Notes: a model not told the origin generated them from the letters alone. A stretch of 64,000 nucleotides of DNA from Nemertoderma westbladi (GCA_032718475.1 JAUCBJ010007366.1:1-64000), one strand, 5' to 3'; shown: positions 22,297-56,243, counted from the first letter of the stretch. Numbers and translations: made by a program.

Positions 22297-22337
22297 ATAT
22301 GTATAATAAATTAACTGAATTTGATTGTTACATTTAG

Positions 22338-22455
22338 GACGATCTTATGGCGGAGCTGGAAGAATTAGAACAGGAGGAATTGGACGAAAAGTTAATAGGG
22401 GTGCCTTCAGCGGGAACAGAACTTCCATCGGTTCCTTCAGCGGAACCAAAAAAAG
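22338..22455 (+). CDS. CHMP4: CHMP4 exon 4
   Basis: CATTTAG acceptor; DDLMAELEELEQEELDEKLIGVPSAGTELPSVPSAEPKK (MIM2-like LPSVP); donor AAG|GTAAAT. Confidence 0.93.
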
Positions 22456-23537
22456 GTAAATTAGTTGGGCTGCTATCTCCTACACAAAGGTAAGATAGTT
22501 GGGCTGCTATCTCCTACACAAAGGTAAGTTAGTTGGGCTGCTATCTCCTACACAAAGGTAAGTTAGTTGGGCTGCTATCTCCTACACAAAGGTAAGTTAG
22601 TTGGGCTGCTATCTCCTACACAAAGGTAAGTTAGTTGGGCTGCTATCTCCTACACAAAGGTAAGTTAGTTGGGCTGCTATCTCCTACACAAAGGTAAGTT
22701 AGTTGGGCTGCTATCTCCTACACAAAGGTAAGTTAGTTGGGCTGCTATCTCCTACACAAAGGTAAGTTAGTTGAGCTGCTATCTCCTACACAAAGGTAAG
22801 TTAGTTGGGCTGCTATCTCCTACACAAAGGTAAGATAGTTGGGCTGCTATCTCCTACACAAAGGTAAGTTAGTTGGGCTGCTATCTCCTACACAAAGGTA
22901 AGTTAGTTGGGCTGCTATCTCCTACACAAAGGTAAGTTAGTTGGGCTGCTATCTCCTACACAAAGGTAAGTTAGTTGGGCTGCTATCTCCTACACAAAGG
23001 TAAGTTAGTTGGGCTTTTATCTCCTACACAAAGGTAAGTTAGTTGGGCTGCTATCTCCTACACAAAGGTAAGTTAGTTGGGTTGCTATCTCCTACACAAA
23101 GGTAAGTTAGTTGGGCTGCTATCTCCTACACAAAGGTAAGTTAGTTGGGCTGCTATCTCCTACACAAAGGTAAGTTAGTTGGGCTGCTATCTCCTACACA
23201 AAGGTAAGTTAGTTGGGTTGCTATCTCCTACACAAAGGTAAGTTAGTTGGGCTTTTATCTCCTACACAAAGGTAAGTTAGTTGGGCTGCTATCTCCAACA
23301 CAAAGGTAAGTTAGTTGGGTTGCTATCTCCTACACAAAGGTAAGTTAGTTGGGCTGCTATCTCCTACACAAAGGTAAGTTAGTTGGGCTGCTATCTCCTA
23401 CACAAAGGTAAGTTAGTTGGGCTGCTATCTCCTACACAAAGGTAAGTTAGTTGGGCTTTTATCTCCTACACAAAGGTAAGTTAGTTGGGCTGCTATCTCC
23501 TACACAAAGGTAAGTTAGTTGGGCTGCTATCTCCTAC
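22452..23537 (+). repeat. 34-bp minisatellite (~32 copies) beginning at the exon 4 donor; each unit contains AAG|GTAAGT
   Basis: Unit AAAGGTAAGTTAGTTGGGCTGCTATCTCCTACAC. Confidence 0.97.
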
Positions 23538-23553
23538 GATTTAGGGAGTTGAA

Positions 23554-36120: not shown

Positions 36121-36355
36121 CTGCATTTCAGTAATTCAGTACGGTAATTTATAAAATGACATTCTGAATGATAAATTATCCCACAATTGAAAACTAACAA
36201 GATACATTACTTGCAAAAATTACGAATTCAGTCATACCAAAGCATATTCATCAATTGCGGTCCGACGAATCTGTACAAAAAAATACAAAATAGTACAAAA
36301 GAGTACAAAGGAGTACAATAAAGTGCAAAAATAGTATAAAAGAGTGCAAAAATAG

Positions 36356-37618
36356 TGTAAAAGCTTCTGTGGGATATAACTGGCCCTTTTGCTTCGCAAT
36401 CCAGTTTCCCCCCTAGGCGCTGGAATACTCTAAAAGGCTCTATAACTATATATATATTCCCCTCGCCCGCAAGGTACCGTTATAGGTGTTTTAACGGACA
36501 TAAAAGTCATTCTGCTATATACGTGTTTTGGCGGACATGGTAAGGCAAAAAACCTGCAATGCACCAAATACCTTTCACAGCTTAGCCGTGATGATTCATA
36601 TTACGACATCTAACAGCTGGTTGCTGACATGGAAACAGCCATTGGCCACATGGTTCTTTGTTTAGCTTAAGCCAATCAGAGCGATTTTTTCTGTCGATGT
36701 GGAGCTTTTCGGCCGATCATACTAGGAGTGTTCAGTCTTACTGTTTTTTGTGATACTTTGTGTTGTTGCTTTCTAGGCCAGGAACACCGGCTCTAGAGTC
36801 AATTCGTTTCATACTTTAGAAGAAACATTAGTAGGCTTAAATTATAGAGCGTATAACTGTTATCACATCTCACATCATATATCAATTTATATCAACTTGT
36901 TTCTATTCTTGCATTATCGGTTCAACATACATTATTATACTGCTATTTACTGTTGTGTTTTGGTTGAATATTATTTGGAGAACATATATAAAGAACCCAA
37001 ATTTCCCAATTTTCTTGATACACTACAGGTTAGAGAGGCGGGTTATATATAGCGATTGCGACTTATATTGTTGTGGTTTGTAGTGAATTTAATGCTATTT
37101 GGTAAGCCCTACATGAGTCAATTGCTGTTCGCTTTATATATGATAAAATTCATTGACGGTCGGCAAATTAGTGAGCAGTATTGTGTGTTACCGGTAGTGT
37201 GCCTGATAGTGATTGATAACTAAGCATTTCCTAAAGAATGCGCCTCATACGTGAATCATAAGCCTTACCGACTTACCGTTGTGATTAGTATAAGTCATAT
37301 CTCTGTTTACTTAGATAGAGCGCCACATCCTAAAGGAACTGTTAATATTTCCCGAAAGTGAATAATATTAGTCAGAAATTATTTATTAACGATCAATCGA
37401 ATAATACAGTAAGCTTACACTGCAATAATAATCTAAGCCCTCAGAATCCAGTCTCCCGGGTATATCCAGCGGGTGAATGGACGCGCACTAGGCTGGCTTC
37501 TGCTAATGTTGTGTTTATTGGTATTAAATATTTGTCATCTTCTAAAGTCTATTTATAAACCAAAAGACATATAAATTTTGGCAGGTTAAACTGCTAAAGG
37601 TCTTCAAAAGCGCGTACA
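36356..37618 (+). repeat. 5' LTR (1263 bp)
   Basis: TGTAAAAGCTTC...AAGCGCGTACA. By eye it differs from the 3' LTR by a 7-bp duplication near 36865 and one substitution (CCACATCC vs CCACGTCC). Confidence 0.97.
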
Positions 37619-37683
37619 ATAACAGTTATTGACTTTATTGCAGTAAGCAGTAAAGTTGAAAGTACCGGTCGACCGGTAAACCT

Positions 37684-37810
37684 GAACCGGTACTTCTGTA
37701 GGTCAGTAGGCCCAACTGCCAGAACCGGTACTGCTGTAGGTCCGTAGGTCCAACTGCCAGAACCGGTACTTCTGTAGGTCCGTAGGCCCATCTGTCCTAA
37801 CCGGTACTTC
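37684..37810 (+). repeat. 38-bp tandem repeat (~3.3 copies) in the element leader
   Basis: GAACCGGTACTTCTGTAGGTC(A/C)GTAGGCCCAACTGCCA. Confidence 0.85.
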
Positions 37811-37974
37811 CAGTATAAGTACATTAGTATTATTCGATTTTGATTATTGTATACCGGTAGGTCTCGATATTAAATCGGGGACGCCTGGTTTTTATTGAGA
37901 TTTTACTTAGGTCTATTTCTGTCAGTTTTATTTCCTAGTAAGTTAATATTGAGCTGAAGACGTGTAAGTCTGCT

Positions 37975-38510
37975 CAGATTGTTCAGATAATTGTAGGCCT
38001 GACTGTTGTCGGATTGTTGTTGAGTTTGGAGAGATTGCGGCGTGTGTAGAGTTTGTCCGATAGAGTGCCAGTTAGTAAGTTGGGGCAGCCATAGCTGTAA
38101 GGTCAATCCCCTCTTAAAGAATAAGTCGTACTACCGTGTTAGAACGCATACTAACTAACCATTTTGGAATCTGCACATACTGTAGTTTATTTAGGCTTGA
38201 CAGTATTCTGCCAGCGTTTTGGCCTGTGTTTGTTTGTGTGGTCTGTTCAGGTACCGTAATAGTTATTACTCAGATATTTTGTAGGCTGGATTGTTGTCTA
38301 GCTATTATTAGGTCTGAAGAGATTGCTGCGTGTGTAGAGTTTGTCTGATAAAGTGCCAGTTAGTAAGTTGGGGCAGCCATAGCTGTAAGGTCAATCCCCT
38401 CTTAAAGAATAAGTCGTACTACCGTGTTAGAACGCATACTAACTAACCATTTCGGAATCTACACATACTGTAGTTTATTTAGGCTTGGTGGTAGTCTGCC
38501 AGCGTTTGGT
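37975..38510 (+). repeat. ~288-bp direct duplication in the element leader
   Basis: GGTCAATCCCCTCTTAAAGAATAAGTCG at 38101 and 38389, with long flanking identity. Confidence 0.85.
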
Positions 38511-39853
38511 TTGTATTTTGTTTGAGTATTCTGTACGGGTAGCGTAATATTTATTATTCAGAGTTTATGCGATTATTCGCAACATTCATGTCCCCAAGTT
38601 TATTCCTACAGTAATTGTGTTTGTTATACATACCGTTATAGTTAAATTAACCCCGGTACTACACGGGCTGCTTGGCGTAGGACAAGACTGGTGATTTTGT
38701 GCACCGGTCACTCCAGCAGATGCCGTGGTTCTTTTAACTGTTCAAGTATATTTAACTACTGATTATTTGTTGTACCAGTACTTGTACCTAATTTAGGGTT
38801 TAGTGTACAGTGCTTTCCGAGGTAATTAGTGTATAGGCAGTATATTTGTGTTGTAAAGTGGTTAATAGGCACGCTGGATCTGGTAGTCCGCGGTAATTAA
38901 CTTCTAGGTAGGAACACTCCGTGATCCATAACGTAGTACCTATAGCGATACGGTTATAGGTCGTCAGGCGGTGGTATTTTCCTATCTGGACAGTGCAATA
39001 TATTTACTACTACTTATTATTTCAAATACCGTAGTACCCTGTCCGTTGTAATAACCAGAAATCTAACCCTTTGTTAGACTGGTTTGTAGACTTCCTGTAA
39101 AATTACCCTAAAAATTCGTACGTAATATTTTTGTTGTGTTTAATTAGAGATTTAATCTCACCCGTATCGTAAGTAATTTGTAGTATTAAGTAACTTAGGT
39201 AAATTAGAATTATCAGTTTTTAGTGTCCAATAGGTAGCACTTCACTGAGAGCGAACAGCTTCTGTGTAGTGACTCCCACAGAAATAATAACATTTATTTC
39301 AAATATTGACAAAACCCCTTTTAAACGGGTATATATCTATTATAAATCAACTCAAACGATTTATAAATAGTAGGCCTGCCATACAACAACTAGGCCTCAA
39401 AATCAGTTGGACTACTGCTTAAATAACGGTAACAAAGTAAGTTAAAGTAAACAAGTAACCCTAAAATATTCAGAAATTCAATTATTCTAAAATAATTGAC
39501 ATACCGGTATTTACCATAGGCTTATTATATTTATTTCTATAAATTTGAGCTGAAATCATACCGGTACTCTGTAATTAATTCTAGTCCATAATTATACTTA
39601 TATATACTATCAGTGTAAGCTGTATACCGGTATTCACGATAGGCCTATTATATATTTATATATATTTGTGCTAAAATTATATACCGGTACTCTGTGACAA
39701 ACCTAGTTTACAATACTTATATATACTATAAGTGTATACCGGTATTCTAATATACTGTAATAAATTAACGATACTAGGCCAACGGTCATACTGAATTACT
39801 AGACTTGCTTTAACTGTAACTATAGCAGTAAGCATTCAACTGTATAGTTAAAC

Positions 39854-41953
39854 ATGTCTGACACTCAGCCATACCTGTCAGACAGTCTAATCGATACAAC
39901 CATCTGTGACACAGATAGGAGTGTGGAGCGATTAAGAAAGGAGTTCAGCTCACCTCCTACTGAAAGAAAGGTCATCCCTCCAGTAGAAGTATCAGACCCT
40001 AAGCTAATCCAACACCGTAGGTCTATCATCGGCACTCAGGCCCAAGTCAAACGGAACCAGGAAGCAGCTGTCCCACAGCAGCAACAGCCTAGTCAAGAAA
40101 CTTGTTCCCAGCAATCCGATAGCTCCAGTAATTCGGATACTGTCGAGCTGACCCCCGAACGCGGATTGCAGATGGCGGCTAAAGCCTACTCGGACCCCCT
40201 TCTCACCCTTCCTGCCGCAGTGCTAACTACTATATTGATTGCGGTGGAGGAACATCAAGCCAATTGGGCGAGAAATAAGCGAGCGACCCAAGATAATTAT
40301 GCGGGATACGCCAGGGAAGAATTGATGTCTATTGTCGAGTCACAATGGAACTTTCCCGGACCCGGACTCCCGTTAGATCTGTCCGAGGCTACTTGGGAAG
40401 ATATACACAGGATGGGAGTGGCTAAAGATACGATGGATCCAGCTGTTTGGAAGAGGTCGGCAGCTGGATATGTGCAGGGATTCTTCGGCTCCTTAGAGCG
40501 ATTAGAAGAACAACTGTTTCGACAACCCCAAGGACCTCAAGAGCAGGAAGAACTGCTATATCAAGTACGCGAAAGAACCCTACGCATTAGACTAATCCTA
40601 TCAGCCTTTGAGGAAACTTCCAAAAGAAGACAGGACACGTCGCTGCAGGTTGCTGTCAAAACTTGGTTCCAGCGGGTAGGTCTCAAAGTACAAGAAACAG
40701 ACCAGTGGAAATCCCAGTTGTCTGAGAGACTAACCTATGACGAACCAACCGATGTCACCCTTCCTCAAGTGGAAGGCGAAGAGACCGCAGAGAGACCACG
40801 AACGAGAGACGCCATCGACATTTATCTGTCCGACTATCAGCGATTCCTAGGAGACGAAGAGTTGAGGAGACGGCTGTCTGGACTTTCCCCTAATAGTGAA
40901 GGAACCCAGCGTGTGTTAGACTCAATCGATGCTGAAATGTTAGCGGCTAACCAAGCTGAGTTTGATGAAAAACCTCGCCTCACTAGAGTCCAAGAAGAAC
41001 TAGTAAAGAAAAAACGGATAGAGGACCGAAAGGCAGCTGCAGTAACAGCGGCAATGGCCGAAGTGGAAGCGGAAAGAAAAGCAGCGGCGGCAGAAGCAGA
41101 AGTAGAAAGAAAAGCAGCAGAAGCAGAAAGAAAGGCAGCAAAGGCAGTGGCAGAAGCAGAACGGAGAGCCTCTGAGGAGACTACCCAACTGGAGTTGGAA
41201 AATCTGCAAGAGACGCAAGACAACATAAATAAACAGTTAACTGCTAGTCGAATGCAGATGATGAGACGATCTACTCCAAAACGCCAGGGATACACATCAT
41301 CAGAGGAAAGCGAAACCACCGATCCTGAAGGCGGCGGAAATAGATCTCGTCTAAGCAGGCGTAGAAAAACATCTCACCGCCACAAATTGCCTGATTTGCC
41401 CCCGGCGGTTAGAAGACAATTAACTAGCACAGACTTAGGTAGTACAGAACCCACAGAACAAATTATTCAGGTCAAAAGACTCCCTACAATAGTCCCTACA
41501 ATAGTTCCCAAAGCCACTTCTGTGCTAGAGACCCCTGTACTTCCAGAGCTTAACTCTAAATTCCCTTTACACAGTACTACACTGCCTGTGCCCGGTAGAA
41601 CAGTCCATGAGAATATCCCTGTCCTGGAAGCTGAGAGAGAAATCAAAGATTTGTCTCCCGTCGTCCCACGTCAGCCCGCTACAATGTTGGCGACTCCCGC
41701 TTCGGCGGTCGAGTGGGTAGAAGAGGGACGGCGGGGGATGAATCTCCTGCTCGGACAGATGCAGGAGACTGTCTACCAACTTAAGGGAACAGTAAGGGAA
41801 GGTAGGGCCGAATTGCAAGAAGTGCAGCAAAGTATCGCGCTAGAACGCGACAAATTAGTCAATATCCAAAAGGGAATACCAATACCCCCTGTAAAATTGT
41901 GTCAACCTGTTAGGTCTGAAGTATTACATGCGCAAGGAACATGCGCAAGGTAG
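39854..41953 (+). CDS. 699-aa ORF: probable N-terminal Gag region or accessory ORF with coiled coil
   Basis: Long open frame with an AEAERKAA coiled-coil run, directly upstream of the capsid-like region but in a different frame. Confidence 0.6.
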   Translation: MSDTQPYLSDSLIDTTICDTDRSVERLRKEFSSPPTERKVIPPVEVSDPKLIQHRRSIIGTQAQVKRNQEAAVPQQQQPSQETCSQQSDSSSNSDTVELTPERGLQMAAKAYSDPLLTLPAAVLTTILIAVEEHQANWARNKRATQDNYAGYAREELMSIVESQWNFPGPGLPLDLSEATWEDIHRMGVAKDTMDPAVWKRSAAGYVQGFFGSLERLEEQLFRQPQGPQEQEELLYQVRERTLRIRLILSAFEETSKRRQDTSLQVAVKTWFQRVGLKVQETDQWKSQLSERLTYDEPTDVTLPQVEGEETAERPRTRDAIDIYLSDYQRFLGDEELRRRLSGLSPNSEGTQRVLDSIDAEMLAANQAEFDEKPRLTRVQEELVKKKRIEDRKAAAVTAAMAEVEAERKAAAAEAEVERKAAEAERKAAKAVAEAERRASEETTQLELENLQETQDNINKQLTASRMQMMRRSTPKRQGYTSSEESETTDPEGGGNRSRLSRRRKTSHRHKLPDLPPAVRRQLTSTDLGSTEPTEQIIQVKRLPTIVPTIVPKATSVLETPVLPELNSKFPLHSTTLPVPGRTVHENIPVLEAEREIKDLSPVVPRQPATMLATPASAVEWVEEGRRGMNLLLGQMQETVYQLKGTVREGRAELQEVQQSIALERDKLVNIQKGIPIPPVKLCQPVRSEVLHAQGTCAR

Positions 41954-42072
41954 AAACTCCTATAGCAAACCCTATTAAGGGTGATTAAAGACCTGTTATT
42001 AATGATATCCCTTATAGACCTGACAATGATCCGAGAAATTTATATACCGATAATTCGATATTAAATAACACG

Positions 42073-45000
42073 ATGGCCCAAGAAAGCTTTACGCGTCAGA
42101 TGGCTAGAACAGAAGCCCGCCAAGCGGTCAAAGTGGGAGAGATCGTTAAATTCAATGGAGATGAGATGAAATGGCTACCTTTCAATGAATATTACAAAGA
42201 TAGCATACAAAACTCTGTACTATCTAACGGAGAGAAACTTAGGTTCCTCATCAAATGCTTGGAAGGACCTCCCAGGTTAATGGCGTTAAAGTTTATTGGA
42301 CATCCAGAAGGATTAAGACAAGTATGGGATACATTAAACATCAGGTATGGTAACAAAGATAACATAGCTAAGTATTTGTATGCAAAATTAGTAGCCCCCC
42401 GACACTTCCTTAGTAGCGGGATTATAGAGTTTTCCGATGAGATTCAAGAGATCTGTAGACAATTGGACTGGTTAGGTAAGTCGCATGAATATCAGAGTTC
42501 CATGGTTATTGGAGCCGTAGTCTCTACTTTACCAAAGGGTGGAGTATGTACACGCTGGGACAAGAAAGTGTTGTACATGAATGAACAACAACGACGAAGT
42601 CCTACCATGGCTGATCTCATGTCCTTCTTAGATGGTGAAGTAAAACTACAACTCATCAAGCAGTCCAGAGAGAAAACATCGGAAAATAAGGTAAGTGAGA
42701 AACCCGCTTCTAGGAGAAGAGTAACACCGGTGTGTTACACTGACGACGGCGAAAGCCAAGCCTCTCAAGAAGAGGACAGCGGGAAAGACACAGATCGATC
42801 TTACAATGTTGACAAAACCTCAAAAGACGTAAGTAAATACAAGGCTCGAAACAACGATAGGAGAGAACAGGCTGCCAAGACCCCTCCTCAGTCTCCTAAC
42901 AGAATACACCGAAGAAAACCCGAAGAAAAAACGAGAGTGCATCAAGTTACCCAAGGTAAAGTGAGTAACATAAAACCTAACTGTGCGCTGTGCGACGGGA
43001 CCCACCGTTTGAGTGCGTGTGCTGAATTTCTAAAGAAATCCCTTGTAGACAGACGTGCAGTCGTATGGGATAAGCGGTTATGCTATAATTGCCTCAGACC
43101 AGGACACCAACGGCGAACCTGTTACTCCGACATAAAGTGTGCAAAGTGTGGCGCGAAACATCACATCTTGTTACACAGTGAGTTCGAACGAAACAAACTG
43201 AGTCAGGTAAGTGAGCCCGAACTACATGTCCAATTCAGTGATGTAAATGACACTGATCAAGAATCTGAGATGGAAGGATTCTATACTGACAAATTCTCCG
43301 ACGCCAACGAATCCTGTTATCTAATCAATACCGCAGTGTATCGAGCACTTACTTATGAAAAGGACACCAACGATGAGTTTCCCCCAACTACTTTTGCCAA
43401 ACAACCATCTTGGAAAGCTCCAACTTCCAACGTAGGAATCAGAGAATTTCCTGTAGTGCAGGTAAGAGTTCACGGTCTTAACAAAAGTTACATAGTGAAC
43501 GCCCTCCTTGACTCCGGCAGCACAGGAACATTCATTGATCAAGAACTAGCCGAAGATATCTTTGCTGGACAACCCAAGTTCCGGACTAAATTGAATATGT
43601 CAGGAATTATGCAGGTTTGGAAATCTACCCTAACGGCAGATTACTATGTAGGTGTGTTGTCCACCCCCCAGGATAAGTTAGGAGCACAAGGTATAAGGTC
43701 GGTAAAAATGGTGGCTATAAGGAACTTCGCTACTACTCAAGCAGACCTTTATAATTGGGACGAGGATGAGAGCATCCAACATCTTAAGATACCTCGATTC
43801 CAGATAGATTATCCTGGAGTGCAAATACTCATCGGCCAAAACGCGCATGAAGCGCTCGAAACATTGGAGAAATGGCCTGCTCAACCACAACCACTGCAAA
43901 CCTATGCGGTAAGAACTAGAGTAGGTTGGTACTTTACTGGCCCTTCCCGCAGGACTCTCGCAGAGAGAATGCCACAAGAACAAACATACCAAGTAAACGA
44001 TTGGGAAGTGGAGAGCAGTGAGGTGGACGAACTAACTGAGGGAACACCATACTCCTCAGATAATGACGACATCTACCAACTCTTCGAGGAAGAGAACACA
44101 ATCGACCTACTTACAGAAAACCAAACTTGGAAAAATCAGGTGAACCTATGTCAACTGATTCGCCCATCGGAACCCATCGCTTACAATGACGAACTAAACG
44201 ATGAGATAGAGCGCTACAACGCTAGAACTCGGGACGAACTAGCTGTACGATTCTTTACTCAGGAACTGGTAGAGCCCAATTCATATGATAAGGCTCTATC
44301 GATAGAAGAAGAAAGAGCCAAGCAAATCCAGGAAACAACTACACGTTTTTTAAAAGACCAAGGTAGATATGAAATCGGCCTACCATTTCGAAAACGAGAA
44401 CCTAGATTTATAAATAACAGACCTTTGGCAGAGAAAAGAATCGCTCAATTACATCGACGACTTACAGCTAATGCTTCAGCGAAAGAAATGTACCAAACTC
44501 AGCTGAAGAAATTTATAACAAAGGGATACGCGGAGCGAGTACCGGAAGGAACACCAGTGACTGAGAGAACGTATTACTTAACACATCATTACGTTCCCAA
44601 ACCCGGTAAACCACACGAAGTACGAGTCGTATTCGATGGCTCCGCCCTATATATGGGCCAATCCCTCAATTCCGAGTTGTTACCAGGACCCAACTTACTC
44701 CAATCTTTGTTGGGAATACTTTTAAGATTAAGACAATATTCCATCGCGTTCGCCTCAGATATAGAAGGAATGTTCTTACAAGTCAAGGCGCTGGATAGAG
44801 ATAGAGACAGCCTGAGATTTCTGTGGTGGCCTGAAGGAGACCTCAATCAGAAACCGGTAGAATACTGGATGACCATCCAGGCTTTTGGAATCATATCAAG
44901 CCCTTCCAACGCCTGCTCCGTGGTGCGAACCACTGCGAATGACAACCGAGACTCCTTCTCAAAAGAAGTGATAGACAACATAAAACGCAATATATACATG

Positions 45001-45654
45001 GACGACAATTTAAGGTCCCTTCCATCAGTAGAAGAAGCCATAGCTGTCGCGAAAGGAATGGTAGATTGTTTGAAAAGAGGTGGATTTCGACTGACGAAAT
45101 TCACTAGCAACTCCCGTGAGTTTCTGGAAGCCATACCAGTAGAAGACCGAGGAACGAAAGACCTAGACTTAATAAAGGACGATCTTCCTGAAACCAAGAC
45201 GCTTGGCTTGAAGTGGGACACTGAAAGATACATCCTGTTTTTTCAGTTAAAACAGCGAGATAATCCAGTTCGGACCAAACGGATTTGTTTAAGTATCCTG
45301 AGCACTTATTTCGACCCATTGGGATTTATTAGCCCAGTTATATTGATTGCTCGGAGTTTAGTACAACAAATGTGGCTTGAAAACCACTCATGGGACGATC
45401 CGCTTAAGGGAGAATTGTTAAAAAAATGGATGAAATGGGAAGATTCTCTACCTGCCATCGAGAACTTTATAATTTCCCGTGCATATTTTGGCCATGTTCT
45501 TCCTACGTATTCTTATCAACTCCATGTGTTTGGAGACGCCAGCGACATGGGAATAGGTATAGAAGCATATCTGCGAGTCAAAACCCCGGATGGAATCAAA
45601 GTCGCCTTGGTTACCTCTAAGGCATTGATTAACAACAAGTTAAAGGTTCCTCGC
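42073..45654 (+). CDS. BEL/Pao Gag-Pol: capsid-like domain, Zn knuckles, aspartic protease, RT, N-half of RNase H
   Basis: KFNGDEMKWLPF (DUF1759-like), CALC..H..C/CYNC..GH..C/CAKC..HH.LLH, ALLDSGS, RVVFDGS, DIEGMFLQV, YMDD, LHVFGDAS. Confidence 0.95.
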
Positions 45655-47866
45655 GGCTTTATACGCTACAGCCATCGGCCGGAACGTAACGGAACAAATC
45701 GACTATCCGCTGGAGAAAACGGTTTATTGGACCGACACTTTACTCGTGTTGGAGTATCTAACCAATGAAGTCTGTCAGTTCAGCGTTTTTGTTACTAACA
45801 GAGTAGCTAATATTCTTAGTCGCACAAAGATAGATCAATGGAGACATTGCCCTGGTACGATTAATCCAGCCGATATCGCCTCCAGGGGAGCAACTCCACA
45901 GGAACTGATAGATACTCCAGATTGGTTGGGTGGACCCGACTTCCTGAGCAAGGAAGAGGATGAATGGCCTCCTCACCTTACTACGGCAGAGATTAGACAA
46001 GCCAAGGGAGCGGAGACAGTCAAACCTAAAACCCGGGCGAGTAAATCGAAGTTATTTAAACCGACTATCGATCTATCTGTATTACATACTTCCGGGAATG
46101 ATGCTTCGGATCCACAATCCCTCAACACAAATAAGTCTGTTGTGGAAATTAGAGATAGAGATTGGAAATCTGGAATACCAGACGTCTCGCAAGGAATCTC
46201 ACCCATGCTGCAGAGAGCAATGCATCATTACAGTTCCTGGAATTGGCTCTGTAAAGCCGTCACATATTTAAGACGATGTTTTCATCATCACTACTCCAGG
46301 ACGAAGACCACTAGTGATAACGCTCCATTGACATCTGCACAAGTTCATGTTATTAAAAATTTACCCAAATATAAGACATCTGACCGTTTTCTAAAGGAGA
46401 AAATTAGTCACCAGGAGCATGAAGAAACCAATAAGCAGATATTGAGACTCCTGCAATGCTATGAGGATTCCGAAAAGTATTTCCTGCTGTTGAGAAATCC
46501 GCAGATGCGCTTAAGGGATCGATTCTCGAGCACAATGATAGATGGGCTAATACGTGTTGGAGGAAGACTCACCAATGCGCCCTTATCCTTTGACACCAAA
46601 TTCCCCATACTTATTAGAAATCTTGAAGTACAAATCAAGATGATTGTAGATGTTCACAGTAAACTTTATCATGCTGGTAGAGAACGAATTCTTAGCGAAA
46701 TTCGAACTCGCTATTATTTTGATAAACCCCGTAGAGCTCTGAACCAAGTTCTTAGGAACTGCATACCCTGTAGGAAAGCATTCAGTAGGCCTTTAACACA
46801 GCGAGAGGCAGAATTACCTAGGGAACGAGTAAGCTTCTATGAACCACCTTTTACTAATACTGGTGTAGATTTATTTGGCCCTATTGAAGTATATCGTGCT
46901 AGGACTATAGTCAAGAGATGGTGTGTCATCTTCGTGTGCATGACTTGTAGAGCCATCCATCTCGATATGGTGAACGATCTATCTACCAACAGCTTCGTCT
47001 TAAGTTTACGACGACAGATCGCTCGCTTCGGGACGAGTAATACCATGAGATCGGATAAGGGAACGAACTTCATTGGTGCCAACAACGAAATACAGGCTTA
47101 CGTGAAGGACTGGAACCAAAGACAGGTGGACGACCAGCTAAGGATAACAGCGTCTAGCTGGACCTTCAACGCCGCCGACGCCCCTTGGTGGGGAGGAAGT
47201 TGGGAGAGATTAATTCGAAGTGTCAAAACCGCATTTCACTTTATAATGCCATGCCGCGCGTATCTCACCGACGAACTTTTGCGGACGTTAATGGAGGAAA
47301 TAGCTGCCTACCTCAACGAGAGACCGCTTATGCCAGTCTCATCGAGTCCCGATTCCCTGGAAGCGCTAACACCCGCGCACTTCCTACTGAAGAAACCTGT
47401 AGCCATGCTCCCACGATCGGAGATTGCCGACGGAGACGAATACTGCCGTCGAACTTGGCAACTTATGCAGTTGCTATCCCGTCGTTTCGCTGACCATTTC
47501 GAGAAACATTATCTGCCCACGCTACAACTTCGAACTAAGTGGTTTGCGCAGCAAGAAAACGTCAGCGCCGGAGATATGGTGCTTATTGTAGATCCAGACC
47601 TCCCACGTAAACGGTGGCAGACAGGTCGTATCATCGAGACCCACATCTCAGATGATGGTTTAGTACGCTCGGTAGAACTCATCGTCATGCGGCGTAACTT
47701 CAAGAAGCCAGGCATAATCTTTGAGACGCAACAACTCAATCGCCCAGTTGGTCGTTTATGTTTACTGGAAAGAGACAGAGAACTCTCCGGGAACTATGGA
47801 AGGCAAGACACTCTTCCCATGACCACCTCCCTAATTCCTCAAACATCTAGGGACTCCCCAACGTAA
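45655..47866 (+). CDS. Pol continuation after frameshift: C-half of RNase H, integrase (HHCC, DDE) and C-terminal domain
   Basis: VYWTDT, FVTNRV, WRHCPGTINPADIASRG, H..LYHAG...CIPC, GVDLFGP, SDKGTNF, SWERLIRSVK, YLPTLQLRTKW, DGLVRSV. Confidence 0.95.
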
Positions 47867-49493
47867 CAGCGTCTGGAGTGGGTGTATGACTATATTATTT
47901 TATCTATTTGTTATATTTTTATATGCGAACTTTATTATGTACTTTATTATAATCGTTTTTATTCAATTTTATTTAGTAGAATGTTATTTTAGTGATTATT
48001 TAGTAGATTAGTGCAATATATTAGTGTTTATTACATACGTAATTACTTATAATATATATTTAGTGCGACGGCGAGAAAATAATTATTTTTCTCTATCCTT
48101 ACTGTCCGTATCATATTATAAATACGTGACTACAGTAAGATGAAATGTCCGTACTTCTTAAAGTACAATAAAGCCACTACTATATTCAAGTATTATTGGT
48201 AGGCAGAGTATTAGGAATGCAAAGTTCAGATCCTCGTGTCTCGGCTAAGCCAAGCTCTGGGTAGACCTTGGAAACGACTTGCCTCTTCACACTGACATTG
48301 CTTCGTGCGATATTGCTCTTCTACCTTATATTAAATAATACATATAGTAGCGTGATGTCCATATAACAGTAGCGTAAAACGCAAATAAATCTGTTAAACC
48401 TTTTGACCATCTGTAATTCTAGTCGATTAAGATATTGCGGCACCCACCGATATACTTGAAAGACCAATTCTAGAATCAGTGGTTAACGTCCCCAGACAAG
48501 TTCTGGAATAAATCGGTGCCCATCTTAAATATTAATTTAATATTTATTAAAATCTGTAAAATTCAGATCCGTTAACAATTCTAGTCGATTAAGATGTCGT
48601 AGCACTTACCGATACTCTTAAAAGACAAATTTCATAGAATTAAGGATCCTATGTCCCCAGACCTGCTCTGGAATCAAATTGTGTCAATTTTAACATCAAA
48701 TAATAAAATTCACGGGAATAAATTCAAATTCATATTTTAAATGAATTTCATAAATTGTCATTTTGTACAATTTATAACATTCCCAAAATTCCATTAATTA
48801 ATAGATCATGGGAGCGGAGATTCATCCTATTGAGTGTATTAGAGTGCGAGAATCTCCAACATATAGTCAATAGCCGATAAAATTAATAAAATCATGCATA
48901 AAGAGGATATTGACAATTAAAGAATTATTATTAAATAGCATCCCAGATCTGTATGCATGAGAATTACCCTAATTCTACCGCTAGCATTCCATAATGTCAC
49001 CATAGCAACACCCACGCTAGAATTAGAAGCAAGTTAAAAGAACAATAGAAAGCTTGTCCCATTGCATAGCATAGAGAATATAGCACACTGTTAGTATCCA
49101 AGGATACACAGTAATAACGTGACATTCTGGAAGGCACTGACTAACGGACAAATGGCCTGTATGTGTGCAGTTGGTGACAGTTGTGTGGAATTTGTGCGTT
49201 TATAGGTGAATGTTACTGCTAAAGTATGTTTACAGTAGCTAGTCGCAATTGTAAAAATAGCCCAACTCTCCTATAGAAAGAACCTAAGTGGATCCAAGCC
49301 TTTGGGACGGACAGTGGAGTGACTTGTGCCGGTTATCGTTGTCGTGCTGTTGCTACATGTTGGCGTAAACACCGCGACGACGGTACATCGGCGCTGAGAA
49401 TCCCACTGTCCGGGGGCAAAGAGAAGTAGGCAGCGACGCCCGCTCGCCTAAAATATAAACTTATTTGGATATTAATAAACTCAGATAGCAGAT

Positions 49494-50762
49494 ATGACGG
49501 AGTTGATAGAAGATGATCTTGGTATTAGGGAGCGATATACTCTACCTTTACAAGCATTTGTGGATAGCTTAATACGCGGTGAAGCCGATCCAACCATTAC
49601 GGAGGACGATGGTCGTTATATCGAACCGCCGATGTCCCAAGAGCAACTTGCACGTGAATTGGACTATCGAAAATTCACCACTCGCTATACGAATCGTAAT
49701 GGTACGTATATGGACTTCTTAACTACCGGCCATCCTATCGATTTGCATGATACGGACGATGTAGATACAGAGAGGGAAATGGTTCTATTTAAATATCATA
49801 CCCAGCGGAGTCGTAACGATAAACCGAGAATAGATCACGAAAATTCTATTCGTAATCGACTGGAAAGAGAAAACGTTGAAGAACCGGATAAACGCATCGA
49901 CTTCAACGAATACCTAGAATTTTTGAGAGAAACCTATCTCAACATCGCCAGTCAGCAGAACTTAGAGACTCGATATCCTCAAGGTATACATCACGACCCT
50001 GTGGTAGAACTCAAACGGCTCTATTTCACTATGATGTATCTTACCGCCGATCGTCCACTACCTGTTATCCCGGATAGTTTTGAACAAATGGAAGAATACT
50101 GCAAAACTGGAGAACGATCACCCGCGTTTCCTCTACAGGACGTACGTCTTTGGTATTATTGTGACGAATGCCCTAGACCCAACCAACAAACTGAAAGACA
50201 TAAACATCCGCGGAGACGTTGCGCTAAACACAGCTTTACGCGTTACACTTACGGGAGTTTCGAGCGAAACCTGTTCGACATACCACCTACGATCGCTCGT
50301 CTTAAACGATCACTGAATAAACCCATGATCAGAGTTCCGGAATACTCGGTCAGGCCTCCTCATTCCCTAGTGAGACCTCAAACTCTTGATCCTAACAGTA
50401 TCACTGATCCTCCCGAACTATATTCCCTGTTCAAAGACTTAGTGTTACCCGAACAATTAATCGGTGGTGCTCCGGTAGTGGGTTCGTTAGACATCCGCCC
50501 ATCCTACTTAGCCGGATTGGGACGCGGGCAGCTAATATCGCCCTTTGATCCTTACAATCGTCCAGGATTAAACCCGATGCAACCCGCCACAGAAGTCGAG
50601 GAGAGCGTTATAAGAAACGCTTTAGACGCCATTCGACAGAAAATCGGAAAGGGAACACAAGATTGTTTAGAGAAACGGAAATTACAACAACAAGTCCATT
50701 ATTTGAAGAAGAGAAAATACAAAGATATGGAAATGTGGAGACGTATACCACTCGGCACATGA
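49494..50762 (+). CDS. Accessory ORF-A (422 aa), unknown function, putative zinc-binding motif
   Basis: Uninterrupted ATG-TGA frame inside the LTRs; contains CDEC-x11-H-x4-C. Confidence 0.75.
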   Translation: MTELIEDDLGIRERYTLPLQAFVDSLIRGEADPTITEDDGRYIEPPMSQEQLARELDYRKFTTRYTNRNGTYMDFLTTGHPIDLHDTDDVDTEREMVLFKYHTQRSRNDKPRIDHENSIRNRLERENVEEPDKRIDFNEYLEFLRETYLNIASQQNLETRYPQGIHHDPVVELKRLYFTMMYLTADRPLPVIPDSFEQMEEYCKTGERSPAFPLQDVRLWYYCDECPRPNQQTERHKHPRRRCAKHSFTRYTYGSFERNLFDIPPTIARLKRSLNKPMIRVPEYSVRPPHSLVRPQTLDPNSITDPPELYSLFKDLVLPEQLIGGAPVVGSLDIRPSYLAGLGRGQLISPFDPYNRPGLNPMQPATEVEESVIRNALDAIRQKIGKGTQDCLEKRKLQQQVHYLKKRKYKDMEMWRRIPLGT

Positions 50763-52996
50763 AGTATAGTGATCTCCCTGACGCTAACCAATGCGCCACC
50801 TTGTGGCATCCAGTAGGGATGACCCTAGAGAACGCCACCAAGGAGTGGAATGAAACCCTTAATGTTATTGAGATGTATGGAGTTGTCACCTACGATAATG
50901 AAGGTAGCGTTCCGGTCGGAGAACTAGGAACTACGCGCATGATCCACATACGCGGATTAGCGGGTTCTACCCACTTGTTTACTCGAGCGTGTTCCGACGT
51001 GATTGATTATTCTTTTGAAACTCTCACCGAAACACAAAAGAATCTCCGACATGGACAATTCGAACTCGCGCAGCGTTACGTCATTGACACCGAACGCAAA
51101 CCGGCCATGGGCATCGATGGATCGATGTTACCCCAGCCCGTACTCGAGATGTTATTCAACGAAAGAATCCTTAAAATCGGCTCAGCTGTTTATGGAGATC
51201 TCCAAAACGACTTTCGGAATATGGAGAACATTCCATACCCTTTCGTTGATACTCAGTTGATTGCTCCCTGGGCAGAAGGTCGAGGTTTCTTCCACACCAT
51301 GTATGCTAATACGTCTAGCAACATTACAAAGGTGCAACGAACTTCCATCGGACATCTTGCCTTTCAGGAATACGGATGGAATTTCAAAGTCGGAAATCCC
51401 ATTAACTATCAACAAGTATACGGAGACCATTATTCTCGATTATACTTTGATGGACCATTGACCGCACCTGGCGCCGTGTATAGCTTCATGAGTGTTCCAC
51501 TCCGTCCCTCTTTAGCTATATACACGATCTTTGAAAACACCGCACTTGCCGGTTGGCTAGCCGATGTGTGCAGTCGTACTATACGCGCCCATCCATTAAT
51601 ACTTGGGACCAAACTCGCTAAGCTAGATGAACATAATAAATTCATCCATTTCGAATGTTTCCGGCGATTTTTAACCCCGTTCCGCAACATGGATAGCCAA
51701 TTTAAAGACCGCGCTTTGACCAAACTCAGCCTAAGAAACTCAGCTGCAGAGAAGTTGGATAGCGCTGGATTCGCCATTTTCAAAGAGATTTGTATATCGA
51801 ACTTGCACTCCTCTGTTATACAAAGACCTCGAATCCCCACAGGTTATTCTGTCGTGGAAATTCAGACAATAGGTCCCCCTGAAGAGACAGACGCACCCAC
51901 TTCAGCTATGCACTTGGAAGACGAACCAATATGTCTAGAATCTGAAGAGATTCAGCCTATCGCGCCCCGGAACAGCGACAACGATTACATCATAGAATGG
52001 TATCAAGGTCCACAGTGTCTCACTGCGTACGATTATCGACATGCCAACTATGTTTCTAGGCAACGTTGTCGGTTATGCGCATCGAGAGACCACGATACGC
52101 CCATGGACACCAACGTCCGCTGTTCCTATTTCCAAGAACAACCGACTATGGAAATTTATTGCGCATATTGCAGACTCAATAACTTGCATATCTTTGCGGT
52201 TTGCCCTCAATTTATGACTCAATGTCACCATTGTCAACTAAAGGGACATGCTAGTTTCGACTGCCCTTTTAATCACGATTTGGAAAGCGTAGATGAAATG
52301 ATCACACTACGTTACATCAGAGCTTGGGAAGCGAACGCTGATTTACATTGTGATTCGCGCCATCGCTATTATCCCGGACGCGCTTACGAAGGAGTTTATG
52401 CGTTCCATCCTTATCTATTCGCTTCGGTTGAACAGAAATCACGCATATCAAGTTACGAGCTACTGAAGCGCGTTGGAGAATGTATTTCAACCAAATTCGT
52501 ACGCAAATTTCTCAGGAGTGTTAATCCTAGCGACCTTCATTCCTATAACTTAATCAATTATATCCGTCAGGATCCGGACTATGGAGACTTGTTTGTTAAC
52601 TCACACCCCGAGTTACAGGAAGTATATCGACGGCCTTACGAATACCGAGCCCGCGAACGCGAGTTGGAAAGGACCATTAAACCCCGGAGGTTTCTAACTG
52701 CCTATGGTCCACCCACGGCCCTCGTTCAGACCACTCGTAAAGGACCCGTAAGAGCAGCTGTCTTGAAACGAGCTCTCAAAGCCGTTAGACCCCTCTCCCC
52801 GGACGTTGATGTCAATCAACCCGGTACTTCGACTGGCGGATACACCGACCATAATCCTACACCCTCTGATGCAATCATATTGCACCCTTCACCCAGGAGT
52901 TATAGCCCTCCTTGTAAAGTGGCTCGCCCCAAAGAGAAAAGGACTCTGGCTAGCTTTAAGAAACTGCGTAAACGCCGTCCGCGCAAGAAAGACTAA
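50759..52996 (+). CDS. Accessory ORF-B (745 aa from ATG 50759): DEDDy 3'-5' exonuclease-like domain, CCHC zinc knuckles and basic C-terminus
   Basis: ExoI VVTYDNEG, ExoII LFNERILKIGSAVYGDL...FVDTQLIA, ExoIII PLRPSLAIYTIFE. Knuckles CRLC..H..C, CAYC..H..C and CHHCQLKGHASFDC. It ends in the NLS-like KKLRKRRPRKK. Confidence 0.75.
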   Translation: MKYSDLPDANQCATLWHPVGMTLENATKEWNETLNVIEMYGVVTYDNEGSVPVGELGTTRMIHIRGLAGSTHLFTRACSDVIDYSFETLTETQKNLRHGQFELAQRYVIDTERKPAMGIDGSMLPQPVLEMLFNERILKIGSAVYGDLQNDFRNMENIPYPFVDTQLIAPWAEGRGFFHTMYANTSSNITKVQRTSIGHLAFQEYGWNFKVGNPINYQQVYGDHYSRLYFDGPLTAPGAVYSFMSVPLRPSLAIYTIFENTALAGWLADVCSRTIRAHPLILGTKLAKLDEHNKFIHFECFRRFLTPFRNMDSQFKDRALTKLSLRNSAAEKLDSAGFAIFKEICISNLHSSVIQRPRIPTGYSVVEIQTIGPPEETDAPTSAMHLEDEPICLESEEIQPIAPRNSDNDYIIEWYQGPQCLTAYDYRHANYVSRQRCRLCASRDHDTPMDTNVRCSYFQEQPTMEIYCAYCRLNNLHIFAVCPQFMTQCHHCQLKGHASFDCPFNHDLESVDEMITLRYIRAWEANADLHCDSRHRYYPGRAYEGVYAFHPYLFASVEQKSRISSYELLKRVGECISTKFVRKFLRSVNPSDLHSYNLINYIRQDPDYGDLFVNSHPELQEVYRRPYEYRARERELERTIKPRRFLTAYGPPTALVQTTRKGPVRAAVLKRALKAVRPLSPDVDVNQPGTSTGGYTDHNPTPSDAIILHPSPRSYSPPCKVARPKEKRTLASFKKLRKRRPRKKD

Positions 52997-53074
52997 CTGT
53001 TTAGAGTATTTACGTATATTAGAAACTGTGATTTTGTATATTTTATAGACTCAAATCCCATTTTCTGGGAGCGG

Positions 53075-54330
53075 TGTAAAAGCTTCTGTGGGATATAACT
53101 GGCCCTTTTGCTTCGCAATCCAGTTTCCCCCCTAGGCGCTGGAATACTCTAAAAGGCTCTATAACTATATATATATTCCCCTCGCCCGCAAGGTACCGTT
53201 ATAGGTGTTTTAACGGACATAAAAGTCATTCTGCTATATACGTGTTTTGGCGGACATGGTAAGGCAAAAAACCTGCAATGCACCAAATACCTTTCACAGC
53301 TTAGCCGTGATGATTCATATTACGACATCTAACAGCTGGTTGCTGACATGGAAACAGCCATTGGCCACATGGTTCTTTGTTTAGCTTAAGCCAATCAGAG
53401 CGATTTTTTCTGTCGATGTGGAGCTTTTCGGCCGATCATACTAGGAGTGTTCAGTCTTACTGTTTTTTGTGATACTTTGTGTTGTTGCTTTCTAGGCCAG
53501 GAACACCGGCTCTAGAGTCAATTCGTTTCATACTTTAGAAGAAACATTAGTAGGCTTAAATTATAGAGCGTATAACTGTTATCACATCATATATCAATTT
53601 ATATCAACTTGTTTCTATTCTTGCATTATCGGTTCAACATACATTATTATACTGCTATTTACTGTTGTGTTTTGGTTGAATATTATTTGGAGAACATATA
53701 TAAAGAACCCAAATTTCCCAATTTTCTTGATACACTACAGGTTAGAGAGGCGGGTTATATATAGCGATTGCGACTTATATTGTTGTGGTTTGTAGTGAAT
53801 TTAATGCTATTTGGTAAGCCCTACATGAGTCAATTGCTGTTCGCTTTATATATGATAAAATTCATTGACGGTCGGCAAATTAGTGAGCAGTATTGTGTGT
53901 TACCGGTAGTGTGCCTGATAGTGATTGATAACTAAGCATTTCCTAAAGAATGCGCCTCATACGTGAATCATAAGCCTTACCGACTTACCGTTGTGATTAG
54001 TATAAGTCATATCTCTGTTTACTTAGATAGAGCGCCACGTCCTAAAGGAACTGTTAATATTTCCCGAAAGTGAATAATATTAGTCAGAAATTATTTATTA
54101 ACGATCAATCGAATAATACAGTAAGCTTACACTGCAATAATAATCTAAGCCCTCAGAATCCAGTCTCCCGGGTATATCCAGCGGGTGAATGGACGCGCAC
54201 TAGGCTGGCTTCTGCTAATGTTGTGTTTATTGGTATTAAATATTTGTCATCTTCTAAAGTCTATTTATAAACCAAAAGACATATAAATTTTGGCAGGTTA
54301 AACTGCTAAAGGTCTTCAAAAGCGCGTACA
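53075..54330 (+). repeat. 3' LTR (1256 bp), preceded by a short PPT-like GGGAGCGG
   Basis: Near-identical to 36356-37618. Confidence 0.97.
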
Positions 54331-56243
54331 AATAGTACAAATGAGTACAAACGAGTGAGAAACGCATACAAAACGTGTATACCAGTGTAGCTGTGTATAG
54401 TAAGTATACACTACACTTACACTACACTTGTATACAAATATAATTATTTGTAAGCAAATGCAACGGCACCTGGAATATGCGCCGCTACAGTGTCAATCAC
54501 TAGCGGCCATGGTCTGATGGTTCTGTGGTCAGTATGAAATGATTGACAGAACTTTGATTCATGTAGATTTTGACTGGCATACAGTACAAGTATAAATAGG
54601 CTACAGTTCGTATAATACAATATAATGCAATAGGCCTACATATTATGTAGTGGGTCAGTGGGTAGATAAAACTCCTATACTGTAACTGTGATTCAAAATT
54701 TAGGTCATAGTCTTAAAGTAGCCCATATACTGCAGTACTGAAGGATAGACTGTATGCTACGTTATGTGGGCTATGTATGTCTGTATGTACGCCTCTATCT
54801 GCAACTTTATTGAGTTCTCCCTCTGTAATTTTGCGGGCTTGGGACCGTTTTTTGTGTTTTTTGAAAACAAAAAGCTGCAATAAAACTCATAAGATTGTAT
54901 TGTAATACTCTCTGACTGTCTGACTGCTAGATCAGCCCCCGCTCAATGCATGGCTCGCCCCACAATCAGAAAATGCTTTGTTTTATTTTGCACATCATGT
55001 GCGCCACTCTAAACGATTTGAACTACACTTGGATACACGTTTTGCAAGCGTTTCTCACTCGTATGTACTCTTTTGTACTATTTTTGCACTCTTTTGTACT
55101 ATTTTTGCACTTTATTGTACTCTTTTGTATTCTTTTGTACTACTATATTGTACTATTTTGTATTTTTTTGTACAAATTCGTCGGTACAACTTGTACTACC
55201 GGTAACTTACTGACATAAGGAAATCTCTGTATTAAAGCTTAAGAAAATCTGGCCCCCAATCACCGCCACCAGTTAACCCGATGGCATGGCCTTTGTTTAT
55301 AGTACGCCTTGAACACGTCGCTCTGGGATGGACAGCGACACGTCAGGCTGTCAGGGTATCCTGTACATCGTGTCGTTCTGTGTGTGGCCAAAAACAAAAT
55401 TACAAACACATACTGTACTGATGTAACATCATTATTTACTAACAGTATATCTAACACCAAAAAGGCGGGAAATTCAAATATGAAATAGAAATTAACAATA
55501 CAGCTGCTGAGCTGTACAGGCATAAGACTGATAGATTCATAGTGCATGCATAACACAGATCAGCAGACAGCAGATACCGGTACGTGCTGATCAGCTGATG
55601 GGTCAAGTGTTAGCGTACCCAGGTACCGGTACTGCAGTACTGCTGTACTTGTAACTTACTGTACTTTAGTTCCAGAGTTTGCCATCCAAGTCCAAGTCAC
55701 AAGTGGACTGTAAACGAATAGGGCCTAACTGTACAAGCAACTAGCAGACTAGTAGGACAGTAGGAGTGCATGAGTGGTAGCCTGGTAGGGCTGTAGGGTT
55801 AGGGTACAGGGTAGGCAGGTCAGCAGGTAGGCGCCTACTACCTGACTACAGTCTGACAGTACTACTGTACTACTGCCTGACTGCATACGGTCAGACGGTA
55901 GGCCTAAATTAATACTGTAAATACCTTAGCTTAATATTGTCTGATTGTAATACAGTAATAGGAATATGCCTACCTTCCTGAGTTCCACCTTACACAGAAC
56001 ACAGGCAGGGCAGACAGGTCAGCCACCAGCAGCACTCTGGCACTCAGCCAGCAGGTAGGCCTATCTGCCTATACGCTATACCGTACTGCACTGCACTGCC
56101 GTGGGCAGGTACAGAGGTAGGTCAGTAGGTACCGGTACGCGGTAGGGCGTAGGGGCGGTCGCGGTACCTACAGTGCTACAGACCTACGTCAGTATGTCGT
56201 GCAGTCAATATATAGGCCTAGCACCTAGCCATTCTGCTAAGTA

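Follow-up and report, generated by a model that had tools for sequence, protein, structure and literature searches.

Exonuclease genes carried as cargo by retrotransposons are already known from bdelloid rotifers, in which the Ty3/Gypsy elements Juno and Vesta, as well as the Athena/Terminon elements, encode a DEDDy exonuclease open reading frame (ORF), termed ORF3, in the position of env (PMC5408684), and the observation has been repeated in reviews (PMC5718144, PMC6431247, PMC6338049). Within a genome, these ORF3s display no significant departure from neutrality (PMC5408684). The reason why DEDDy exonucleases reside in retroelements has been a standing question since 2017, the rotifer study having found neither clear selection nor a function. 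Two further points of reference are the RNase D of Trypanosoma brucei (TbRND), a nuclease of the DEDD type that binds its RNA substrate through zinc fingers, which increase cleavage (PMC7797062), and the family Belpaoviridae, for which the profile of the virus taxonomy committee ICTV gives a genome of 4.2–10 kb, coding for no more than gag, pol and env, and an 18-nt primer site complementary to the 3' end of transfer RNA (tRNA)-Arg or tRNA-Gly (PMC8742986).

Here we describe a retrotransposon of the BEL/Pao type contained in a 64,000-nucleotide stretch of the Nemertoderma westbladi genome (GCA_032718475.1 JAUCBJ010007366.1:1-64000, hereafter the window), which carries two extra genes, ORF-A and ORF-B, ahead of its 3' long terminal repeat (LTR). 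Our preferred reading, by analogy with known enzymes and to which we give a probability of about 0.4, is that ORF-B encodes a likely active RNase D/WRN-type 3'-5' exoribonuclease, acting as an accessory gene that blunts silencing by host small RNAs.

ORF-B, its relatives and its selection

ORF-B (50,759–52,996, plus strand) is an uninterrupted frame of 745 codons that ends 78 bp short of the 3' LTR and includes the following parts:

50,759–51,600, plus strand: N-terminal DEDDy-like exonuclease domain (predicted), with D46, E48, D147, Y255 and E259
52,067–52,264, plus strand: three CCHC-type zinc knuckles
52,877–52,996, plus strand: basic C-terminal tail, putatively similar to a nuclear localisation signal (NLS), with the stop codon

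An earlier reading of this locus, made from the DNA letters alone (the sequence-only reading), had reported an intact ORF with exonuclease motifs, three knuckles of which the last is perfect, and a basic tail, and all of these are present where it had placed them: D46/E48 at 50,894–50,902, D147 at 51,197, Y255/E259 at 51,521–51,535, and the knuckles at 52,067–52,123 (CX2CX4HX9C), 52,160–52,204 (CX2CX5HX4C) and 52,223–52,264 (CX2CX4HX4C). Its placement of the ORF between integrase and the 3' LTR is correct on the 3' side, where the polypurine tract and the LTR follow, but incomplete on the other, because a 1.6-kb spacer and the overlooked ORF-A separate ORF-B from integrase. That the ORF is not env also agrees with our data, as the best 19-residue Kyte-Doolittle mean is 1.1 for ORF-B and 1.2 for ORF-A; since neither has a transmembrane stretch, neither product is classed as an env-like glycoprotein on its hydropathy.

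The sole ORF-B match obtained by HMMER among 1,835,955,588 representatives is P0001 (E 1.1e-6), a protein of 648 aa encoded on a 9.4-kb contig, which is 28% identical to ORF-B across aa 103–270 and has the same architecture, namely a nuclease-like domain, a linker and three knuckles; the C-terminal match exceeds 1000 of 1000 shuffles. The residues D46, E48, D147, Y255 and E259 of ORF-B align with D62, E64, D130, Y229 and E233 of P0001, so that the replacement of the last catalytic Asp by Glu, pointed out in the sequence-only reading, is common to both proteins and is therefore not a lesion of the window copy. P0001 has a faint match to PF01612 (E 0.2), its three nearest clusters in the Atlas are PF01612 families (0.86, 0.77 and 0.77; leads only), EXD1-like clusters are among its nearest neighbours, and its knuckles resemble the nucleocapsid (NC) of human immunodeficiency virus (HIV), with E ~1e-4. 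A candidate origin of the ORF-B knuckles is the gag of its own element: in the comparison of the two, 21 of 1000 shuffles scored equally high.

Regarding the single motifs, the ExoII Asp, D147, lies in a conserved context and is supported by a weak match of ORF-B to the RNase D model TIGR01388 (E 0.0078, aa 126–171, among 18,950 models), and ExoIII reads Y255-x3-E259 instead of the canonical Y-x3-D (10 of 1000 shuffles of the ExoIII region score equally high in the pairwise test). ExoI is placed at D46/E48 because the multiple and profile alignments, not the pairwise test, support this position. Among random alignment subsets (n=253), D46 shares its column with two or more Asp in 121, and the best subset brings all seven test positions into register; moreover, P0001 aligns from ExoI to ExoII with no long insertion. 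A second DxE, at aa 110–112, was considered as ExoI and rejected because its distance from ExoII, 37 residues, is too short for the three-strand core and because P0001 lacks the Glu at that place.

The word-indexed protein search returned none of 4,039 candidates for ORF-B and only P0001 itself among 7,989 for P0001, and DNA scans of viral contigs, genome contigs, phages and a first metagenome set found no relatives. A second metagenome scan, with the core shared by the two proteins, gave five short loci, of which the four that were scanned (L002–L005) all encode PF01612 proteins, and these led to 121 relatives, mainly basidiomycete, the named ones being fungal. These proteins are bridges and not members of the ORF-B family. 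The joint profile of ORF-B and P0001 aligns with the fungal WRN-like exonucleases from ExoI through ExoII (hhalign probability 90.5, E 1.3e-6), and with a profile built from 60 of the relatives ORF-B reaches 16.6 bits and P0001 19.0, as against 2.2 at most for 500 shuffles. As a separate observation, the large basidiomycete family (L002–L005; P0002–P0121) has ORFs of ~1,500 aa in which a WRN-like exonuclease is combined with PF20499, and one may guess that these are possibly transposon-borne.

The N-terminal domain of ORF-B very probably adopts the DEDDy-type (RNase D/WRN) fold in a divergent form, and we file it as DEDDy-like, of a DEDE variant, and not as a canonical PF01612 member. We infer, with moderate strength, that its metal site would be formed by D46, E48, D147, Y255 and E259. 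By analogy with RICE1, which is active with Glu replacing the last Asp (PMC5451212), the enzyme is probably catalytic in spite of its Glu. The assignment to the RNase D/WRN/EXD2/Mut-7 branch, as first proposed, is thus favoured by TIGR01388, by P0001 and by hhalign, whereas the structure models are too low in confidence to confirm the fold. The better of these, the second (pLDDT, the predicted local distance difference test, 45.3; predicted template modelling score 0.37), shows one helix plus three strands between aa 23 and 76, and DnaQ proteins, EXD2 and Nibbler among them, make up its top structural matches; the best Foldseek match is EXD2 at E 0.018, with none at or below 0.001, and the VIA comparison with EXD2 gives Z 5.2 and a root-mean-square deviation of 7.1 over 125 aligned residues, all from an alignment picked for its motif register (alignments with a misplaced motif, A5, A7 and A8, were excluded from folding).

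The evidence on selection comes from sequencing runs of four studies, filed under two organism labels, in all of which the element stretch is present: contigs from all four runs cover 30 of the 30 bins of 39,800–53,070, and one run (X1) alone has 97,583 matching contigs at 80–100% identity. The nuclease domain (50,790–51,640) is matched by 3,397, 1,147, 12 and 37 contigs in the four runs, and the whole variant table holds no indel. Among the best 40 of 175 variants in this domain, 34 are synonymous and 33 fall at third positions, which corresponds to an omega of ~0.05–0.08 (p <= 6e-13 against the site-based expectation), and all 40 leave the proposed catalytic residues untouched. ORF-B is therefore under strong purifying selection in a multi-copy family. 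The synonymous excess, the lack of indels and the many diverged copies indicate that it is not a one-off capture, and the conditions under which the earlier interpretation would have been refuted, i.e., a single-copy, neutral or once-captured ORF, do not apply, given thousands of diverged contigs. For the other regions, the synonymous counts among the top 40 of ~3,330 variants are 3 of 6 in ORF1, 6 of 12 in gag-pol (one of the 12 lying beyond the frame break described below), 5 of 7 in integrase and 2 of 6 in ORF-A; these use 31 of the 40 rows, the nine dropped being six non-coding, one within the integrase frame but ahead of its first ATG, and two in ORF-B, and they are enriched for private changes of the window copy, hence not comparable with the nuclease-domain set.

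Possible functions of ORF-B

If ORF-B is a counter-silencing nuclease, its three zinc knuckles would hold single-stranded RNA and pass the 3' end on to the nuclease, while the basic tail might mediate nuclear import. The substrates might be small RNAs, fragments or products of slicer cleavage, or the non-templated 3' tails by which the RNA of the element is marked for silencing. A role directed at the host, more than a part in one step of replication, is suggested because elements whose modes of replication are unrelated have DEDDy cargo in common, such as Gypsy and Athena (PMC5408684), the Dada DNA transposons, for which the authors proposed 3'-end processing (PMC3706591), and the closterovirids, for which proofreading was proposed (PMC8297929). 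If true, this would be an enzyme of an animal retrotransposon aimed at the defence based on PIWI-interacting and small interfering RNAs.

Several points weigh against this proposal. To begin with the homology, the nuclease domain has no match in Pfam and ORF-B has none in the PDB by sequence below E 0.8; the ExoI region taken alone does no better than chance when compared pairwise, with 448 of 1000 shuffles reaching its score; and the fungal set was found through the ExoII pattern of ORF-B itself, so that the comparisons made with it (hhalign, the 60-sequence profile and the PDB matches of the bridged profile) are partly circular. Of the structure models, the one based on the alignment of ORF-B and P0001 was a failure (pLDDT 28.7), and the second is no independent proof of the fold because its alignment was chosen for motif register and its matches are weak. 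RICE1 is a loose precedent, its mechanism being non-canonical and metal-independent (PMC5451212). As for selection, synonymous changes may be less frequent among the remaining 135 of the 175 variants than among the 40 with the best support, and a deletion derivative (junction 49,862/51,916, lacking 49,863–51,915 and with it the last part of ORF-A and the entire nuclease domain) occurs in three of the four runs, implying that ORF-B is dispensable in cis; another derivative (44,069/45,831), which skips most of the reverse transcriptase (RT) and RNase H region, occurs in all four. Lastly, the small-RNA role is an argument by analogy, with no direct link of ORF-B to small RNAs, and the authors who described the Dada and closterovirid genes favoured end processing and proofreading, not counter-silencing (PMC3706591, PMC8297929).

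The alternative that survives best concerns replication of the element itself and starts from its priming site, which is described by three features:

36,356–37,618, plus strand: 5' LTR, 1,263 bp, TG...CA, delimited by comparison with the 3' LTR
36,853–36,863, plus strand: LTR-internal 11-mer, candidate self-primer (inferred from its complementarity to the bases that follow the 5' LTR)
37,619–37,629, plus strand: primer-binding position, complementary to 36,853–36,863 and followed by a 13-bp hairpin, with no tRNA-type TGG

Directly 3' of the 5' LTR, the TGG with which a tRNA-type primer site starts is absent. Instead, 11 of 11 bases flush with the end of this LTR are complementary to 36,853–36,863, and the paired stretch goes no further than the LTR boundary. 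Three occurrences of the 11-mer were counted in the window, all of them within the element, against 0.09 expected, and a match of at least 11 bases was found in 15 of 5000 resampled LTRs. In the minimum free energy fold of an RNA starting at 36,853, 10 of the 11 bases pair with the site (probability ~0.2), beside the 13-bp hairpin. In the self-priming elements Tf1, Tf2 and Tj1, the bases that follow the 5' LTR have their complement at a site internal to the LTR (PMC4600332, PMC5341516), and by analogy we lean towards the view that the present element also self-primes its reverse transcription, with a candidate start at 36,853.

ORF-B might accordingly be packaged through its nucleocapsid-like knuckles and process the replication intermediates of its own element, either by trimming the unpaired 3' tail of LTR-derived RNA annealed at the non-tRNA primer site, which would leave a paired 3'-OH, or by polishing the ends of RNA or complementary DNA (cDNA). 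This possibility, which we consider the main rival though unlikely, profits from the absence of a tRNA-type primer site together with the exact 11-base complement, from the similarity of the P0001 knuckles to HIV NC, and from the 3'-end processing already proposed for DEDDy domains borne by transposable elements (PMC5408684, PMC3706591). It is weakened by the fact that the RT of Tf2 cleaves its self-primer itself (PMC5341516), which makes an additional nuclease unnecessary, by another initiator-like site, TCAGTC, 121 bp upstream of the candidate primer, and by the location of ORF-B outside the packaged polyprotein, with an NLS-like tail. In addition, a related solo LTR (5,390–6,569) retains 10 of the 11 bases, with one change; being solo, it has no primer site in which a compensating change could be compared. 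A bolder and improbable combination would be a giant BEL/Pao lineage that dropped tRNA priming and primes with its own LTR RNA, trimmed by a knuckle-guided exoribonuclease that may also strip silencing tails.

Somewhat more doubtful than own-element processing is that the nuclease is weak or dead and that ORF-B serves as an RNA-binding adaptor in the manner of EXD1 or Egalitarian, for instance by localising the RNA of the element to the germ line or by diverting the silencing factors of the host as a decoy. In its favour are the Glu at the last catalytic position in both known members, ORF-B and P0001, the EXD1-like clusters near P0001, and the long hairpin just upstream of ORF-A. Against this, the four acidic residues and the Tyr are kept at only 28% identity, which would seem beyond the needs of binding, and Glu is compatible with activity in RICE1 (PMC5451212).

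There is little to recommend the view that the N-terminal domain is not DEDDy at all, with a single 35-residue stretch resembling ExoII within a conserved accessory protein of another kind: direct comparisons do score aa 123–178 only and both models are of low confidence, but P0001 aligns between ExoI and ExoII with no long insertion, its Atlas neighbours are PF01612 clusters, and the best of the 253 random subsets brings all seven test positions into register together. Weakest of all, and hardly probable, is that ORF-B proofreads cDNA and so permits an 18-kb genome, like the exonucleases of large RNA viruses, an idea that the size of the element, ~2x the 4.2–10 kb family range (PMC8742986), and the same proposal for closterovirid DEDDy genes (PMC8297929) invite, whereas ORF-B lacks a fusion to RT, an ORF of the same kind is also found in rotifer elements whose layout is ordinary, and the copies are highly diverse, even though age confounds this last point.

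The host element and its surroundings

The LTR pair was found by BLAST of the window against itself (36,355–37,619 versus 53,074–54,331, in direct orientation, 99.4% identity) and is the sole long direct repeat. The element measures 17,975 bp, with an interior of 15,456 bp. A single substitution and a single 7-bp indel separate its LTRs, which begin with TG and end with CA, and an intact 5-bp target duplication, AATAG, is present on both flanks; the near-identity of the LTRs and the intact duplication mark a very young element, recently inserted. Besides the features listed above, it comprises:

36,351–36,355, plus strand: 5' target-site duplication, AATAG
37,630–39,853, plus strand: leader of 2.2 kb with 38-bp and 288-bp tandem repeats
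39,854–41,953, plus strand: ORF1, 699 aa, charged and of low complexity, with no Pfam match, in a frame different from gag-pol
42,073–45,768, plus strand: gag-pol, with DUF1759 capsid region, three zinc knuckles, protease, RT and the start of RNase H (Peptidase_A17)
45,644–47,866, plus strand: remaining RNase H and integrase (Integrase_H2C2, DUF5641)
47,867–49,493, plus strand: non-coding spacer of 1.6 kb between the pol stop and ORF-A
49,494–50,762, plus strand: ORF-A, 422 aa, with a Cys/His cluster; its stop overlaps the ORF-B start as ATGA
53,064–53,074, plus strand: polypurine tract
53,075–54,330, plus strand: 3' LTR, 1,256 bp
54,331–54,335, plus strand: 3' target-site duplication, AATAG

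The window copy is probably incapable of moving by itself, because ORF1 and gag-pol lie in different frames and the pol reading frame is broken near 45,640. The Pfam matches are above or near the cut-offs for Peptidase_A17 (1.8e-27), DUF1759 (1.7e-12), DUF5641 (2.2e-20) and Integrase_H2C2 (9e-8), and weak for the protease and RT (E 0.016 and 0.035), in the expected order of protease, RT, RNase H and integrase (PR-RT-RH-IN). With two TG...CA LTRs, a target duplication and a polypurine tract, the structural hallmarks of BEL/Pao are present, and the host was correctly named in the sequence-only reading on account of its LTRs and BEL-type domains. By its enzymes, then, the element belongs to BEL/Pao, and we file it as a variant of the lineage and not as a typical member because a tRNA-type primer site is absent. 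No Rfam family matches within the element apart from U12 (E 0.42), which we regard as a chance match, and an inner, nested LTR 3' of pol was ruled out, the spacer having no similarity to either LTR.

The spacer begins after the pol stop at 47,866 with a purine run followed by TGTA (47,872–47,886), which resembles a genuine junction of polypurine tract and LTR and is possibly a central polypurine tract or the relic of an older 3' end. Further on, two repeats (48,415–48,528 and 48,577–48,693) of ~115 nt each, 73.5% identical, fold as similar nested stems with a small hairpin (z -2.4 and -2.1); they have no Rfam match, and are possibly a tandem structured RNA element serving a sub-genomic RNA or internal translation. 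The long hairpin just upstream of ORF-A (49,308–49,411; z -5.66, 0 of 200 shuffles) and a TATAAA at 49,454, 40 bases ahead of the ORF-A start, suggest an internal transcript. Such a sub-genomic RNA might carry both ORF-A and ORF-B, the latter perhaps translated by stop-restart at the ATGA. A -1 frameshift fusion of the two is unsupported, since the ORF-B frame is open from 50,549 and no X XXY YYZ heptamer is found in 50,500–50,760. The Cys/His cluster of ORF-A (C-x2-C...H-x-H...C-x2-H) may bind zinc. Pfam, NCBIfam and PHROGs gave no match to ORF-A, the PDB none with E below 1, and ORF-A is not similar to P0001 (130 of 300 shuffles score equally high).

Concerning the surroundings, the retrotransposon interrupts an arm of an inverted-repeat element (36,262–36,363 and 55,070–55,184) that is composed of 10-bp units and is probably a non-autonomous DNA transposon. 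A match to the Twister-P1 ribozyme (54,815–54,886, minus strand; 42.8 bits, E 1.3e-6, under the gathering score of 67.2) is located ~500 bp beyond the 3' LTR, within this interrupted element. The solo LTR of a related family mentioned above (5,390–6,569, minus strand; 1,180 bp) is 76% identical across the 3' two thirds and is flanked by the duplication GTTAG; both target duplications of the window, AATAG and GTTAG, end in TAG. Three satellite arrays lie side by side at 16,913–28,101, with units of 34, 34 and 33 bp in 158, 32 and 137 copies, and their repeats generate the long ORFs of this region. Foldback-like long inverted repeats are found at 30,598–33,001 and 3,192–11,462.

Comparison with known systems

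With Belpaoviridae (PMC8742986; PMC3118150), the element shares DUF1759, Peptidase_A17 and DUF5641, the order PR-RT-RH-IN, TG...CA LTRs, the 5-bp duplication and the polypurine tract. It differs in its size, 18 kb against 4.2–10 kb, about twice the described range, in its two extra non-env ORFs, and in having no 18-nt primer site for tRNA-Arg or tRNA-Gly, and it thus appears to dispense with tRNA priming. The statement that no BEL/Pao lineage with an exonuclease cargo has been described agrees with our literature search, which found none in the open literature (subscription journals, Repbase Reports, GyDB and supplements, which fall outside this scope, may contain one); the word exonuclease is absent from the available main text of a survey of 7,861 BEL/Pao elements (PMC3118150), and the available parts of PMC12440569 and PMC3601003 add nothing on exonuclease cargo or self-priming in this group. 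Likewise, no report of self-priming in BEL/Pao was found in the literature outside Repbase, GyDB and subscription journals. The likeness to Tf1, Tf2 and Tj1 lies in the complementarity between the bases after the LTR and a site in the element's own LTR; these are Ty3/Gypsy elements, whereas the present one is BEL/Pao, with a transcription start and a primer cleavage that are predicted.

Among cellular proteins, WRN, EXD2, Mut-7/Nibbler, EXD1 and Egalitarian (PF01612) share with ORF-B the order and local context of ExoI, ExoII and ExoIII, and proteins of this branch are the top PDB matches of the bridged profile and of the low-confidence model, both of which are biased by their alignments. ORF-B differs from them in its identity of only ~10–16%, an insertion of 30–35 residues between ExoI and ExoII, and the Glu of ExoIII. 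TbRND offers the closest parallel in layout, with a DEDD exonuclease joined to tandem C-terminal zinc fingers for single-stranded RNA and 3' trimming, but it is a cellular mitochondrial enzyme with canonical DEDD residues and four fingers, so the resemblance is architectural, with no significant sequence similarity (PDB 7C42, E 2.9).

The nearest systems are the rotifer ORF3s of Juno, Vesta and Athena; these did not turn up in our protein searches. ORF-B and the rotifer ORF3s are both separate, intact RNase D-like ORFs placed after pol, with no transmembrane segment and with a predicted function, and both have one acidic residue changed from Asp to Glu, at the third position in rotifers (DEED) and at the fourth in ORF-B (DEDE). 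ORF-B differs in having three fused tandem CCHC knuckles, a basic tail and a coupled second extra ORF, and in its strong purifying selection as opposed to the lack of significant departure from neutrality in the rotifer ORFs. Being strongly selected in a family that is young, multi-copy and part of yet another group of retroelements, it is a good test case for the question raised by the rotifer elements. As a kind, exonuclease cargo is already known from rotifer Gypsy and Athena elements; what appears to be new here is its host, which is BEL/Pao and not Gypsy as in Juno and Vesta.

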